This document shows, piece after piece, positions 22,051 through 29,284 of a stretch of DNA of 37,433 nucleotides. Every line of letters begins with the position of its first letter. The stretch's first letter is position 1. The notes under the pieces were generated by a model. That model worked only from the letters and a program-made list of their open reading frames with translations. It was not told where the DNA came from and ran no database searches. The stretch lies in the IMG/VR virus record IMGVR_UViG_2718217716_000005; one strand, 5' to 3'. This DNA is from a virus (Duplodnaviria > Heunggongvirae > Uroviricota > Caudoviricetes). The position numbers and the translations under genes are program-made.

Positions 22051-23632
22051 CCAGCATCCCCTTCATTTCCGCAGCAAACATGGCATCACTGAGCAGCGTC
22101 ATCAGGCGGGAATCATCCATTTCACGATAAAGGGCAGGCAGGTCTGCCAGCGCATCCGCCAGCCCCCGCGTTCTGATGGCATCAATGACCGGCTCCAGCA
22201 CCGGATCGATGGCCTCCTGTAAGCGGCGGGCAGGCACCGCGTCCCCCATGTCGTCCAGTTCATCACGCGGCGTGTTTTTCGCTTCCGGCAGTCGGGCTGA
22301 AAGCGCCGTCTGTTCTGTCTTTTCCTGTTTTTCCGGTAGCGTTTCCCTGTCAGGCATGGCCGGTTCATTACTGTTCTGACGGACACGGAATATGGCTTCA
22401 CCGGGCGTGGGCTGTGGAATACCGGTCTGCTCCCGTACCCAGGGATCAGGAATATCCATCCCCGCACTGAGTTGCATCACCGCACTGGTTATTTTGGTGA
22501 TATCCCCCGGTTCTTTGGTCTGGAAACAGATACGCGGCAGACGGCGGATATCAATGACATGCGTGGTGTTCAGGGCATACAGCGGATACACCAGATCTCG
22601 GTTCAGGGTTGCAGCCAGCTGGCGTAAATCAGAATCCCTGATTTCCCGGCGCACCTCGTTATGCACCTCACCCAGTGAGCGCGCGCCTTTGTCTCCGGCT
22701 TCCGTGGTCAGCGTACCGCCGAGTATTGCTTTGGAGATGGAACGCTCCCCCCACGAAATCATGGTTTCAAACGGATCGGCCTGACCGTTCGCTGCCGCCT
22801 GAAACTCCAGCGACATCCCGGCCGGGATGATCCCGCCTGTACGTCGCCCGATATCCATCACCGCCCGCATCAGGGCACTTTTCTGCTCCGGCGTTGCCCC
22901 GGACGGGTATTTCCCGACCTTCATTGGCAGGCCGTACACCTCCAGAAATTCCGCCAGATCGCGCACGGAATAGTTTTTGAAAATGAACGGCCAGATAAGC
23001 GTCCGGACAAGCCCGGTTGCACCACCATAGCCGGTGCGTGAACGCGACTGATGCACTATCCAGCCAAAGGGCTGAAACGCCACCCCGGCATGGCTGCCGT
23101 CACGCAGTCGCAGCTCGCTCAAATCATCCGGGTTAAGGCAGAAATGCCCGCTGTCACGCCAGCGGATGGCGCGGATGATGTGCATTTTACCGAGCATCCC
23201 GTGCTCAATTTCCATGCAGGAATAGCCCTTCAGGATGGCATCCGTGGCGTCAAACAGCATGGCATCAAACCAGTCGGCGGAATGCAGATATTCGTCGAGC
23301 ATTTCCGCGTCCTTTTTCTCATTCGCGCTGGCGTTCGGTGGCGGCTCAATGCTCCATGGCACCCCCTGAATGGCAAGACGTCGCTTGCCCAGCTCCGCAA
23401 AAAGGTGGGTGTCCTTTTCTTCAATGTCAGCCGCCAGATCGGACTGGGCAATCAGATCGCCACGTTCAGCCCCGCGAAGGCACTGCGCCGCCCGGTTCGG
23501 GGTGATACCCGAAGCCGGATGTTCAATATAACGGCTGGCAATCTGCGGAATATCCAGCGCGGCACTCTGCATCTCCGGGTCAAAGGAGAAAGGTTTTCCG
23601 TCAGTATCAATGATGCGTCCCACTACCAGCAC
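22034..23632 (-). CDS. Portal protein (Mu H-like)
   Basis: 532-aa ORF downstream of the large terminase with overlapping start. Confidence 0.8.
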   Translation of the reverse strand: MLVVGRIIDTDGKPFSFDPEMQSAALDIPQIASRYIEHPASGITPNRAAQCLRGAERGDLIAQSDLAADIEEKDTHLFAELGKRRLAIQGVPWSIEPPPNASANEKKDAEMLDEYLHSADWFDAMLFDATDAILKGYSCMEIEHGMLGKMHIIRAIRWRDSGHFCLNPDDLSELRLRDGSHAGVAFQPFGWIVHQSRSRTGYGGATGLVRTLIWPFIFKNYSVRDLAEFLEVYGLPMKVGKYPSGATPEQKSALMRAVMDIGRRTGGIIPAGMSLEFQAAANGQADPFETMISWGERSISKAILGGTLTTEAGDKGARSLGEVHNEVRREIRDSDLRQLAATLNRDLVYPLYALNTTHVIDIRRLPRICFQTKEPGDITKITSAVMQLSAGMDIPDPWVREQTGIPQPTPGEAIFRVRQNSNEPAMPDRETLPEKQEKTEQTALSARLPEAKNTPRDELDDMGDAVPARRLQEAIDPVLEPVIDAIRTRGLADALADLPALYREMDDSRLMTLLSDAMFAAEMKGMLDGSGD

Positions 23633-25287
23633 CCCCGATCAAATTCATGATATGCCTCATCGTCATCACGATAACCGCCCTCCATTGCCCGCGACCGCTC
23701 CGGCAGCGCCTGACAAGCTGATTCATCCAGGATGAAGCCCTCCATGTATGACGCCCGGTTTGCCATACAGAGCGCCACGGCAAAATCACCATGGCGGCGG
23801 GCGTTCGCAGCCGTTGCGTTCTGGTCCTTCGTGCGCCCCTTGTCGATTTGCGGGATACCATTCACCACCTTCACATGGCGCAAATCATCAAGCGTGGTCT
23901 GATGGCGGGCGACGAGGATATTCTGATCTTCAAACTCGGCTTTCAGTTTTGGCATCCACTCGCCGTACCACTTCGGCGACAACATCACGCAGTCGATGAT
24001 GTCCGGGCCAAAGGCCAGCAGTGCGGCCTCTGCCAGATAGCCGCCGTTACCGGTGGCGTCGAACGCCGCACCGACCAGTGCCGGAACGCGGGTCAGGATG
24101 TACATCATCACCTGTTCCTGCTGGGCATACGGAAGGTTGCGCAGCTCCACGCGAAACACCTCGCGCTTTGCCAGGGATTCGGTGATTTCCAGCAGCACAA
24201 AGCAGGACAGGTCACCGGTGCGGGCAAAGTCTTCCCCGAAGCTGAAGCGGGAACGGGGATTTAATTTGTCTGTAAACGGTTTTAAATGTTCTTCACACCA
24301 GGTTAAAACTTCCGATTCACGCAGCCATGCGGCACGGCTGATGAAGTCGTCCGGAGCTTCAAACGTCAGAATCGGGATGTCACGGATCATCGCCATTTCA
24401 ATAAGCGCGTGGGGGATATAGGCACCGCCGGATTTTTTCGGGATACAGCCGTATTCCTCGTCGGCGTCCTCACGGGTCGGGGCATTTTTGTAGAGATCAT
24501 CACGCCATTTCTGCTCGCTTTCCGGCGACCATTCCTGATCGGTGACGTAACAGATACGACGGTATAATCCGTCCGCAATGGCATCATCCAGGGTTATGCG
24601 GTGGACGCTGTAATCCTTGCGCCCCTCGCGGGCTTCCTGAATGTACTGATTAAACAGATTATCGACGCCGTTATGCGTGGAAATAATGCGCACGCGTGCG
24701 CCCCACATGGTAAGCGCCATTGCCGCCTTGAGAAGCTCATCCAGTGACTCGTGGAACGCGGCTTCATCAATCACCACATCCCCCTGAAGGCCGCGAAGGT
24801 TTGATGGACGGGAAGACAGTGCCTGAATTTTGAATCCACTGTTCGGAAAGCGGATCATGTAGGTCAAAATTTCTTCTTTTTTATCCCGATCCCAGAATGT
24901 CTGCTCATACACATCAGCATCTGCCAGCTGGTTAAAGGCACGGGAGAACAGCGCGCAGGCAGAAATATATTCCAGCGCCATCTCCTGTTTTGACCCCACA
25001 TAAAACACATTGCGGCCACCACGCCGCTTCGGTTTTGCAGCGGTAATGACGTTACGCCCGGCTTCCGCCCAGGTAAGCCCGGTGCGGCGGGATTTTTCCG
25101 CGATGCAGACCTGACTTTCATCCGCAAACCAGCGGGCCTGATAATCCAGAAACACCGGCATATCACCGGGCAAATCAAGGCTGTCCGGCACATCCACGCC
25201 CAGCAGGGCTTTTTCACCGGACAGATCAATTTTGCGGGGAGGCGTCATTTGTATCAGTGAAGGAGACTTTTCTTTGGCTTTGTTCAT
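23623..25287 (-). CDS. Terminase large subunit
   Basis: 554-aa ORF with Walker-like and nuclease-like regions, first large gene of the late structural block. Confidence 0.8.
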   Translation of the reverse strand: MNKAKEKSPSLIQMTPPRKIDLSGEKALLGVDVPDSLDLPGDMPVFLDYQARWFADESQVCIAEKSRRTGLTWAEAGRNVITAAKPKRRGGRNVFYVGSKQEMALEYISACALFSRAFNQLADADVYEQTFWDRDKKEEILTYMIRFPNSGFKIQALSSRPSNLRGLQGDVVIDEAAFHESLDELLKAAMALTMWGARVRIISTHNGVDNLFNQYIQEAREGRKDYSVHRITLDDAIADGLYRRICYVTDQEWSPESEQKWRDDLYKNAPTREDADEEYGCIPKKSGGAYIPHALIEMAMIRDIPILTFEAPDDFISRAAWLRESEVLTWCEEHLKPFTDKLNPRSRFSFGEDFARTGDLSCFVLLEITESLAKREVFRVELRNLPYAQQEQVMMYILTRVPALVGAAFDATGNGGYLAEAALLAFGPDIIDCVMLSPKWYGEWMPKLKAEFEDQNILVARHQTTLDDLRHVKVVNGIPQIDKGRTKDQNATAANARRHGDFAVALCMANRASYMEGFILDESACQALPERSRAMEGGYRDDDEAYHEFDRGCW

Positions 25288-25535
25288 CAGGCTTTACCTG
25301 TCAGAATGCTTTTGATTCGGAACTCAAGCTCTTCAGTCATCACGTCCACGCCACTCAACTCATCAGTGACAGCCTCTGCCAGCAGCGAATGCAGTTGTTC
25401 CAGGGATATTTCTCCGGCAATGCTGAGTTCAGTCAACTCACGACACGCTTTTATGGTTTCAGGAGGTAACTGTGTTGCAAGACTGAATGCCTTCTGATGA
25501 GCACTACTCATCAGTGAGCGGTTATCTGTTGCCAC
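25287..25535 (-). CDS. Small protein (82 aa) translationally coupled to the large terminase; C-terminus paralogous to the upstream 193-aa protein
   Basis: GTG start at 25535 preceded by AGGAGGTGA. Stop overlaps the terminase ATG. C-terminal AVTDELSGVDVMTEELEFRIKSILTGKA matches AVTDELRGVDGMSEQIEFRIRQMLLGKA of the neighbour. Confidence 0.55.
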   Translation of the reverse strand: MATDNRSLMSSAHQKAFSLATQLPPETIKACRELTELSIAGEISLEQLHSLLAEAVTDELSGVDVMTEELEFRIKSILTGKA

Positions 25536-25545
25536 GATTCACCTC

Positions 25546-26127
25546 CTACGCCTTACCAAGCAGCATCTGCCTGATACGGAATTCTATCTGCTCGCTCATG
25601 CCATCCACGCCGCGCAACTCGTCGGTGACGGCGTTCGCCATCTCTTCAGCAAATGCGGCCCGGATTTCTTTTTCACGCTTAATGCTGCGCTCGGCGGCAC
25701 TTTCCGCACGCTGTGCCGACAGGAGGATGTCCTTAATAAGGCGCATATCCACATCGCTGTCGCTGTTCAGGGATTCGGTGGCAGCACGCAGACGGCGGTA
25801 CATCAGGGCGCGGGACATTTCCAGAATCAGTGCCGTGGTTTCACCGGTCGGCTTGTCCCCCAGTTCGGCCATCATGGCTTTTGTCTGCTCGCGTAAATCA
25901 CGCAGGTTACGGGCAATCAGCTCATTACGGGAGGCCTCCCGGCTGATGGCCGCCGGTGAAAGCTGCTGCTCTTCCGGCAGACCCGCCTCACGGATCAGGC
26001 GGTTGATTTCCTCGCGGATCTGGACCTGCGTCAGACGTTTTTCACGCAGCATTTCCAGCAGCGGCTTACGGATGCTGTCGGGGAGCAAATCCACCTTGCG
26101 TACACGGCCACGAGTTGGCTTATCCAT
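25546..26127 (-). CDS. Terminase small-subunit-like / DNA-packaging protein (Mu gp27-like)
   Basis: 193-aa ORF with a basic N-terminus and coiled regions, directly upstream of the terminase genes. Confidence 0.6.
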   Translation of the reverse strand: MDKPTRGRVRKVDLLPDSIRKPLLEMLREKRLTQVQIREEINRLIREAGLPEEQQLSPAAISREASRNELIARNLRDLREQTKAMMAELGDKPTGETTALILEMSRALMYRRLRAATESLNSDSDVDMRLIKDILLSAQRAESAAERSIKREKEIRAAFAEEMANAVTDELRGVDGMSEQIEFRIRQMLLGKA

Positions 26128-26129
26128 CG

Positions 26130-26420
26130 TTATCCCCTTGCGCGTGGTTTCTTCACACCCGGAACAGTGGCACGACCTTCCGCCACATCCTGACCCCGGC
26201 CGGTCAGTTCAGCGATGAAATAACCGTTAACAAGCGTGCGCTTACGCACCAGTCCCTGCTCGGCAAGCCAGGCAATGTGGGTGTGAACGGTGTCGCGGGA
26301 CACACGGTGGCCGTAATCATCCAGGCAGTCCTGAAGCACGGATTCGCCCAGTTCGCCGTTGTAATCCGCCAGCGACCGCAGAATGACAAGACGCTGATCT
26401 TCAGTAATGAAATCACTCAT
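26130..26420 (-). CDS. Hypothetical late protein (Mu gp26 position)
   Basis: 96-aa ORF; start overlaps the upstream stop. Confidence 0.5.
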   Translation of the reverse strand: MSDFITEDQRLVILRSLADYNGELGESVLQDCLDDYGHRVSRDTVHTHIAWLAEQGLVRKRTLVNGYFIAELTGRGQDVAEGRATVPGVKKPRARG

Positions 26421-28942: not shown

Positions 28943-29284
28943 ATGACTTTTGGCCCCATCATTGAGTTTGAATCAGGCTATACCGATGACATGTACCAGT
29001 CCCTGCAGGATAATGGTATCAGATACACCCCTATTGCAGCTTTATCATACAATGTAACCGAAATGGTTGAGTTGCTCCATGCGGTTAACACGCCAGAAAC
29101 ATGGGCCGCTATTGTTCTCATCGTAAAAAAATGGATAAACCGACACAAGGATGCCAGTGTTGAATTAACCATGAATGAGAACGGGCAACTGACATCCGTA
29201 AAAATAAACGGCTACAACGTAAATGATCTGGATAAGCTTGGAGTACCCAGTTTGATTCGAGCTTCTTTTAAATCAGAGGAGTAA
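28943..29284 (+). CDS. Hypothetical protein (113 aa), opposite-strand low-GC insertion between GemA and the Mor/C activator
   Basis: ATG at 28943 after a very AT-rich 270-bp leader, followed immediately by a terminator hairpin. No recognisable motif. Confidence 0.6.
   Translation: MTFGPIIEFESGYTDDMYQSLQDNGIRYTPIAALSYNVTEMVELLHAVNTPETWAAIVLIVKKWINRHKDASVELTMNENGQLTSVKINGYNVNDLDKLGVPSLIRASFKSEE

Follow-up and report, generated by a model that had tools for sequence, protein, structure and literature searches.

We analysed a 37,433-nucleotide (nt) viral DNA record (IMG/VR IMGVR_UViG_2718217716_000005; hereafter the window, meaning the whole of this stretch), a Mu-like Escherichia coli prophage lying on the minus strand. 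Our subject is orf82, an open reading frame (ORF) of 82 codons situated between the gene for gp27, a Mu-type small terminase subunit, and the gene for TerL, the large terminase subunit. The C-terminal tail of gp27 has a diverged counterpart at the end of orf82, and homology searches show the latter to be a chimera rather than a gp27 paralogue, with residues 1 to approximately 53 of a separate small-ORF family, here called X, joined in frame to a gp27 tail.

Positions 25200-26200, the stretch searched, are 100% identical to E. coli strain M3 (NZ_CP010183). The local gene order is Mor, lysozyme, spanins, TraR/DksA-like, DUF2730, gp26-like winged helix, gp27, orf82, TerL and portal, and the segment gp26-gp27-(orf82)-TerL-portal matches that of Mu with orf82 as the one additional gene. 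gp27 occupies the position of a small terminase gene, directly upstream of the large terminase gene in the late/packaging operon. The features of the junction are as follows.

25546..26127, minus strand: gp27, Mu-type small terminase subunit, 193 amino acids (aa), ATG start, TAG stop (PF11985, PHROG 426, identity to Mu gp27)
25549..25641, minus strand: gp27 tail, residues 163-193 (MANAVTDELRGVDGMSEQIEFRIRQMLLGKA), putative TerL-docking module (invariant columns, ratio of nonsynonymous to synonymous polymorphism (pN/pS), co-occurrence with TerL class)
25539..25547, minus strand: Shine-Dalgarno sequence AGGAGGTGA of orf82, overlapping the gp27 TAG stop (read from the sequence)
25287..25535, minus strand: orf82, chimeric 82-codon ORF, GTG start, which is ATG in most relatives (ORF list, PHROG 30922)
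25398..25526, minus strand: X-domain of orf82, residues 4-46 (homology to a Salmonella 65-aa ORF between gp27 and TerL)
25290..25382, minus strand: orf82 residues 52-82, an eroded duplicate of the gp27 tail (65% identity to it)
25285..25289, minus strand: TGATG, in which the stop of orf82 overlaps the start of TerL, putative translational coupling junction (read from the sequence)
23623..25287, minus strand: TerL, large terminase subunit, 554 aa (PHROG 2, Mu alignment)
25153..25287, minus strand: N-terminal ~45 residues of TerL (..PPRKIDL..LGVDVP..PVFLDYQ), specific to phages with tails of the GKA class defined below (class alignments)
25226..25613, minus strand: junction cassette divergent from O157-type prophages, comprising the distal gp27 tail, orf82 and the first ~20 TerL codons (30-nt sliding-window identity)

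An earlier note on this DNA had described an 82-aa gene with a GTG start, a ribosome-binding site and a stop overlapping the TerL ATG, and all of these statements hold. The end of AGGAGGTGA lies 3 nt from the orf82 GTG, with the GGAGG core 6 nt upstream of the start, and the orf82 TGA and TerL ATG have one base in common. Ten nucleotides separate the gp27 TAG from the orf82 start and the two genes lie in different frames, which speaks against a gp27-orf82 read-through fusion. No promoter, terminator or Rfam/known RNA element was found in the insert region.

gp27 matches PF11985 (Phage_Mu_Gp27/DUF3486) over profile positions 1-173 of 173 (E=3e-33, 116 bits against a cut-off of 28) and PHROG 426, a small terminase family (E=9e-55), and it shares 57% identity with Mu gp27, itself carrying a small terminase annotation. 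In an AlphaFold2 model of gp27 (predicted local distance difference test score (pLDDT) 73), a helical N-domain is predicted at pLDDT 87-93 with three long helices, and the tail lies at the end of a long helix, with a break at VDGMS and a last short helix at 179-189. A Foldseek search of this model against the PDB returned no significant match (best E=0.8), and no solved homologue of gp27 was found by sequence. TerL matches PHROG 2, a large terminase family (E=7e-43), and is 72% identical in alignment with the Mu large terminase region; it has no Pfam-A match at E<=0.1. A 291-aa protein on a Logan contig (P0050) is a read-through fusion of a gp26-like winged-helix protein with gp27, and is probably due to a frameshift introduced during sequencing or assembly.

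Over their last 31 residues, gp27 and orf82 align without gaps, with 20 of 31 positions identical (65%) and 26 similar (BLASTP, E=1e-12). The DNA likeness is limited to the last 91 nt, which are 68% identical (E=1.4e-10), and no significant DNA similarity was detected between the remaining parts of the two genes in any frame (blastn, word size 7). The claim that two terminase-proximal proteins share a C-terminal motif encoded by diverged DNA copies is borne out by these values. Searches with either tail (tblastn) recovered exactly two copies in the whole window, the next match having E>1.

Upstream of the tail, orf82 has other relatives. It matches PHROG 30922, a family of unknown function (E=5.5e-55), and is annotated as a hypothetical protein in RefSeq; there is no match to PF11985 at E<=0.1 and no meaningful match elsewhere in Pfam, and neither orf82 nor X has a meaningful match in NCBIfam or PADLOC. 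Residues 4-46 are 35% identical over 43 aa to an ORF in a Salmonella locus, L029 (BLASTP, E=2.6e-7), which belongs to the X family of 65-aa ORFs at the gp27/TerL junction of Salmonella Mu-like prophages. The orf82 N-terminal part and Salmonella X align together as families, and Salmonella X itself matches PHROG 30922 (E=0.007) as well as an internal part of the 1338-position profile of PHROG 220 (E=2.5e-5). The X family forms 16 database clusters of 65-67 aa, with the exception of one 51-aa entry, at 72-98% identity; its members end in KVKKV, with a stop that overlaps the TerL ATG, and do not carry a gp27-like tail. With a ratio of nonsynonymous to synonymous substitution rates (dN/dS) of 0.33 at dS 0.54, compared with 0.05-0.06 for neighbouring genes, Salmonella X is, as judged by its substitution pattern, a real gene under light constraint. 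The stretch running from the gp27 stop through the ribosome-binding site into the first small-ORF codons (GGTAAGGCGT[A/G]..GGTG..ATG.CAACAGA) is homologous in the window, in a CI5-type E. coli prophage and in the Salmonella loci, so that sequence homology, genomic position and start region all place the N-terminal part of orf82 in the X family. Residues 1-53 with their homologues showed no similarity to a 54-sequence gp27 alignment (HHalign, E=0.73). Because the N-terminal part is homologous to X and unlike gp27, and the tail alone is shared with gp27, we regard orf82 as a fusion of X and a gp27 tail. The earlier note had left the choice between an old paralogy and a module exchange; it is the module exchange that is supported, whereas the paralogy is not. 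A model of orf82 (pLDDT 66; four helices with a disordered loop at 60-66) was too weak for a fold search.

We then compared the window with related prophages for the source of the second tail. The tail DNA of orf82 variants matches the gp27 tail of O157-type prophages at 64-69 of 87 nt (69 of 87 for the copy in the window), in comparison with 51-63 of 87 nt for all other gp27 tails compared and 58 of 87 for the adjoining gp27. In O157-type prophages, gp27 joins TerL directly through the same GCCTGATG junction that links orf82 to TerL, and the gp27/TerL junction string of an O157:H7-type prophage (GGTAAAGCCTGATG) is identical at the orf82/TerL junction of the window. Direct overlap or abutment of gp27 and TerL is the ancestral state, since the majority of ~60 distinct loci have a spacing of 0 to -3 nt, and Mu has one of 7 nt. 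In a 30-nt sliding-window comparison with the O157 type, identity is 90-100% on either side of the cassette and 0-80% inside it (~25226-25613), and the cassette begins midway through the gp27 tail and ends near TerL codon 20. Within the O157-type gp27 tail, informative sites are mainly gp27-like towards the 5' end and mainly orf82-like towards the 3' end, with a mixed middle, placing this tail near the centre of a three-way star; its interpretation as a clean recombinant of both window tails, formed through deletion by repeat recombination, was considered but carries no weight here.

These observations are most simply accommodated by an unequal in-frame crossover at the gp27/TerL junction, between a phage with the order gp27-X-TerL and a phage with the order gp27-TerL. 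Such a crossover would have fused X, cut near codon 53, with the beginning of the gp27 tail from the second phage, so that the ~50 first codons of orf82 would derive from X and the ~30 last codons would represent the 3' end of an O157-type gp27 gene. The tail piece would have stayed with TerL, as it carries the stop/start overlap (GCC TGA TG) that would couple TerL translation to the upstream ORF, and the resident gp27 would have retained its own full tail, leaving the tail present twice. The whole cassette would later have moved between backbones by homologous recombination.

The tail is, by alignment, the best-conserved part of the gp27 family: in an alignment reaching down to 31% identity, 12 of 19 invariant columns fall within the last 24 residues (E170, R172, G173, D175, G176, M177, S178, E179, E182, I185, L189 and G191). 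The tail is predicted to be a module comprising the end of a helix, a loop (RGxDGMSE) and an amphipathic helix. When a tail-only profile was searched against 1.84 billion representative proteins, 22 matches were obtained, and the meaningful ones were either C-termini of gp27-like proteins, some of them otherwise very distant, or fragments. Spurious repeat matches aside, the orf82 family was the sole clear other architecture that bears the tail. Three matches (P0033, P0036 and P0045) were rejected as spurious VTDPLRGVDCS repeats, most likely translated DNA repeats unrelated to gp27. Two short matches (P0038 and P0041) were considered as a second orf82-like family, but the contigs that hold them measure 581 and 1112 bp, and both resemble fragmentary genes or decayed loci instead.

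Two classes of tail can be distinguished, ..ELRG.DGMSE.LE..I...LLGKA (GKA) and ..AEKIVKQAGLTAETAA.IK.QILGIA (GIA). GKA tails always occur with the TerL N-terminus ..PR[KL]I[DN]L..LGV..PVFL.YQ and GIA tails always occur with a different one, without exception in the 22 and ~35 distinct loci of the respective classes. The class-2 TerL aligns to the window TerL from residue 35-45 onwards only, while alignment begins at residues 1-11 for GKA-tail loci. In one locus, L042 (3001-3564), the body of gp27 shares 97% identity with its counterpart in L069, a GIA-class phage, while the tail is 25% identical to the L069 tail and 86% identical to that of the O157 type, and the TerL of L042 is of the GKA class. 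L042 is a clean natural recombinant in which tail and TerL have been swapped exactly at the body/tail boundary. In phages lambda and P22, the C-terminus of the small terminase binds the N-terminal region of TerL (PMC9611059). The elements involved, the gpNu1 C-terminus with the gpA N-terminus in lambda and gp3 residues 140-162 with gp2 residues 1-58 in P22 (PMC9611059), resemble the gp27 tail in being short C-terminal elements that follow a helical core. They are likewise specific for their cognate TerL N-region (PMC9611059), a parallel to the gp27 tail, whose class goes with that of the TerL N-terminus and which has been swapped along with TerL. However, the tails share no sequence similarity with that of gp27, for which docking is deduced from sequence, and lambda and P22 carry a single tail on the small terminase, whereas the window has a second copy on an unrelated small ORF. 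The conservation of the tail, its co-occurrence with TerL class, the L042 swap and the lambda/P22 precedent support a reading in which the gp27 tail is most likely the element that docks on the N-terminal part of the matching TerL. The earlier suggestion of a TerL-docking peptide thereby gains indirect support for the tail of gp27.

Additional variation was observed around this putative interface. Synonymous diversity in the gp27 tail (25549-25641) is 0.80 per synonymous site, compared with 0.29 in the body (25642-26127), a ~3-fold excess at an invariant protein sequence in 15 loci, a pattern suggestive of long-standing alleles, or of recurrent recombination at the junction, with strict selection on the protein. 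TerL codons 1-20 (25228-25287) are hypervariable, with a pN/pS of ~1.0, and at least three unrelated TerL N-terminal versions (MNKAKEKSPSLIQM.., MNNAEELSPLLTNT.. and MSKRTGEEKIKPDTGLIKL..) occur among prophages whose TerL is otherwise 96-98% identical.

The two tail copies differ in how strongly they are constrained. In a sample of 15 E. coli orf82 loci (the window, IMG/VR, NCBI and Logan contigs, and RefSeq genomes), with values that rest on 26 substitutions, pN/pS was 0.01 in the gp27 body and 0.02 in the gp27 tail (16 synonymous and 1 nonsynonymous changes), as opposed to 0.58 in orf82 residues 18-51 and 0.36 in the orf82 tail (7 synonymous and 8 nonsynonymous). The difference between the two tails is significant (Fisher p=0.005). 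TerL residues 21-554 gave 0.08 and TerL residues 1-20 gave 1.0. All orf82 variants carry R172S, G176V and S178T at positions that are invariant in the gp27 family, and some variants additionally carry G173S or L181P.

The distribution of orf82 is narrow. The family is confined to E. coli at >=80% identity. Among 5426 complete E. coli genomes, 25 hold its N-terminal part, without exception in this setting, and isolated phages gave no match. Three copies of this part occur in E. coli JE86-ST05 (NZ_AP022815.1) and two in strain 48 (NZ_CP166879.1), which suggests multiple or recently transposed orf82-bearing prophages in these strains. Neither Mu nor the O157-type prophages have the gene, and of the 230 E. 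coli genomes with this gp27, ~205 carry it in a prophage of the O157 type. One gp27 protein (WP_000360580.1) is identical in seven RefSeq strains, six of which have orf82 proteins with all-different accessions while the seventh, CI5, has no orf82. In the CI5 type, a third kind of junction (L003 3103-3136; also L009 and L014), the gp27 protein is identical and orf82 is cut down to a 9-codon ORF, MATDWFSYE, with the same ribosome-binding site, the start ATG GCA ACA GAC and a stop 4 nt past the TerL ATG; the CI5-type TerL has a different N-terminus.

In contrast to the protein, the expression signals of orf82 are conserved. All 13 loci compared retain the ribosome-binding site, the ATG/GTG start and the TGATG overlap, with a Shine-Dalgarno sequence that reads GGAGGTGA, GAGGTGA or GGGGGTTA, and the length is 82 codons in 15 of 15 loci, even where codons 2-17 have been replaced by a very different sequence. 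The ORF is therefore conserved with its start signals intact, and the tail similarity on which the earlier note relied is significant. Taken together, the comparisons show that orf82 is dispensable across relatives and that it combines relaxed constraint on the protein with conserved signals for expression.

We consider it probable that orf82 is a chimeric late-operon ORF that arose by recombination at the gp27/TerL junction, with a tail copy that is eroding and an ORF that mainly delivers ribosomes to TerL. The second tail copy would not be needed for packaging; selection would visibly be keeping the ribosome-binding site, the start, the open frame and termination at the TerL start, and the protein would be a dispensable accessory product with at most residual affinity for TerL. 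The data fit with translation of orf82 being kept mainly to hand ribosomes to TerL, we infer that orf82 lacks a packaging role, and its tail probably does the job of the gp27 tail weakly or not at all. Several points weigh against this account. Nonsynonymous changes in orf82 are nominally below the neutral expectation (binomial p=0.035 for residues 18-82 and p=0.048 for the tail alone), and with this weak but present constraint the whole protein, its tail as well, may have some activity. Of the 12 invariant tail positions, nine are kept, including the entire C-terminal helix pattern E..E..I...L.GK, and a binder that retains this helix but not the RG.DGMS loop could act as a non-activating competitor. 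Coupling is deduced from geometry, and weak Shine-Dalgarno-like motifs (AGGT and AAGG) upstream of the TerL ATG might be used independently. The motif A-x-A-V stands at the joint in gp27, orf82 and Salmonella X, so that it may be the microhomology used at the crossover while the exact crossover point cannot be placed. An 87-aa X variant in L028 (3590-3853), ending in ..AKARAERLRGAELYLFVRYFVGKTS, may carry a more degenerate tail remnant, in which case the fusion is possibly older than proposed; this is a marginal lead, as shuffle tests gave p=0.008-0.039 for three of five gp27 tails and 0.07-0.18 for the other two at the protein level and essentially non-significant values (p=0.05-0.46) for DNA, and the X of L029 has no gp27-tail remnant by the same tests. 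For the docking function of the gp27 tail, the tail and TerL are adjacent on the DNA, and adjacency by itself could give co-occurrence without contact; a literature search on the Mu gp27/gp28 interaction or DUF3486 found nothing relevant.

The same observations bear on the other explanations for orf82. The earlier note had cast the small protein as a possible competitor or adaptor. In this view, orf82 would be a functional terminase modulator that binds TerL through its tail, and would either compete against gp27 or hold the X-domain at the packaging motor. This would agree with the retained helix pattern, the depressed rate of nonsynonymous change in the tail, the co-expression of orf82 with TerL directly downstream of it from a strong ribosome-binding site, and the presence of up to three orf82 prophage copies per genome, which is compatible with an active phage. 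The loss of the R172/G176/S178 loop residues with the helix kept is also a possible look of a binding-competent, non-activating decoy. Yet pN/pS in the tail is 0.36 where the genuine gp27 tail shows 0.02, three invariant residues are gone and erosion is ongoing in some variants, relatives of the Mu, O157 and CI5 types manage without orf82 (the last with an identical gp27 protein), Salmonella X proteins lack any tail, and the gene is rare in complete E. coli genomes and unseen in isolated phages. Such a role is neither shown nor favoured, and we judge it unlikely. In a specific form of this idea, which we hold to be slightly more doubtful still, orf82 is a phage-encoded tail mimic whose TerL-binding helix, lacking the RG.DGMS loop, blocks the docking site without activation or tethers the X-domain there. 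Were this true, orf82 would tune when or on which DNA packaging begins, and it would offer a natural separation-of-function probe for the interface between the small terminase (TerS) and TerL.

That orf82 is untranslated, an annotation artefact in a recombination spacer whose frame is open because the sequences are young, seems improbable to us. The family is narrow, limited to one species and highly similar throughout, constraint is weak, and some database members are truncated or frameshifted (P0010 and P0011); however, the strong ribosome-binding site, start and termination at the TerL ATG are uniform among the loci, as is the length of 82 codons, the pattern persists where codons 2-17 have been replaced, nonsynonymous changes fall below neutral expectation (p=0.035), and Salmonella X shows a dN/dS of 0.33 at dS 0.54 and a fixed length of 65 aa in nearly all 16 clusters. 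The least credible explanation is true paralogy throughout, in which the 3' half of gp27 was duplicated in tandem long ago and the N-terminal part of the copy diverged past recognition. gp27 and orf82 are adjacent, have a common C-terminus, are both predicted to be all-helical and both carry A-x-A-V before the tail, but the profile-profile comparison of X(1-53) with the gp27 family is negative, DNA likeness ends with the last 91 nt, the homologues of the N-terminal part are clear and tail-less, and 65% identity in the tail against none upstream is unlike uniform divergence. Paralogy over the whole ORF was rejected on the blastn and HHalign results given above.

The chimeric origin of orf82 can be placed among known systems. 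Mosaic joints and morons in tailed-phage genomes, described by Hendrix, Hatfull and colleagues, arise through illegitimate recombination at gene boundaries. The window resembles them in having a sharply divergent cassette in a near-identical backbone and a short duplicated segment flanking the insert. While mosaic joints lie at intergenic boundaries, the joint in orf82 lies inside coding sequence, as an in-frame fusion that is kept open and, as read from its signals, expressed. Phage-inducible chromosomal island (PICI) Rpp proteins and the small-terminase homologues of Staphylococcus aureus pathogenicity islands (SaPIs) are satellite-encoded, target or replace the helper small terminase and have demonstrated phenotypes. 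orf82 is similar to these in being a small protein that possibly engages the terminase via a subunit-interaction surface; unlike them, it is phage-encoded, lacks a DNA-binding domain and is under relaxed constraint.

The gp27/TerL junction is a hot spot for such insertions. Unrelated small ORFs between the two genes were also observed in other Mu-like lineages, none of them with a gp27-like tail: two ORFs in L066 (3576-3898), a 68-aa ORF in L070, L071 (3582-3788) and L074, and hydrophobic ORFs of 50-55 aa in L078 (3552-3719), L079 (3552-3704) and L083. In Pseudomonas phage JBD26, the defence gene Tab and a late-expressed antagonist (anti-Tab) are found at the same junction (PMC10884400), and passages of the same article mention packaging-redirecting satellite proteins (PMC10884400). 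Like Tab/anti-Tab of the Pseudomonas Mu-like phages, orf82 is a small late-operon ORF that directly follows the small terminase gene, leaves little space between stops and starts, and has a patchy distribution among relatives; in contrast to orf82, anti-Tab does not carry a small-terminase tail. orf82 had no PADLOC match that would identify it as Tab/anti-Tab, the anti-Tab sequence itself not having been compared directly. The 259-bp insert (25287-25545) contains no oppositely oriented defence gene and no promoter-like site, and is too small for a second gene. We conclude that orf82 is a variant of ordinary phage mosaicism at a known site for accessory genes. Elsewhere in the window, at 28943-29284, a 113-aa ORF annotated in RefSeq as a hypothetical protein runs on the plus strand, against the direction of the other prophage genes, with the Mor gene on one side and the gp16-family gene on the other; it is a possible moron.

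Taken alone, orf82 carries little weight: it is a rare hybrid ORF under weak constraint, limited to a single lineage of Mu-like prophages in E. coli. The broader implication concerns the terminase, where the last ~30 residues of gp27 appear to act as a module that can be exchanged and that accompanies TerL and a particular TerL N-terminus of 45 residues. The two tail classes, the L042 swap and the orf82 variant without three invariant loop residues provide a testable map of the TerS-TerL interface for the Mu-type terminase. With these findings, the enterobacterial Mu-like phages can be counted among those that take up small accessory genes at the TerS/TerL junction.

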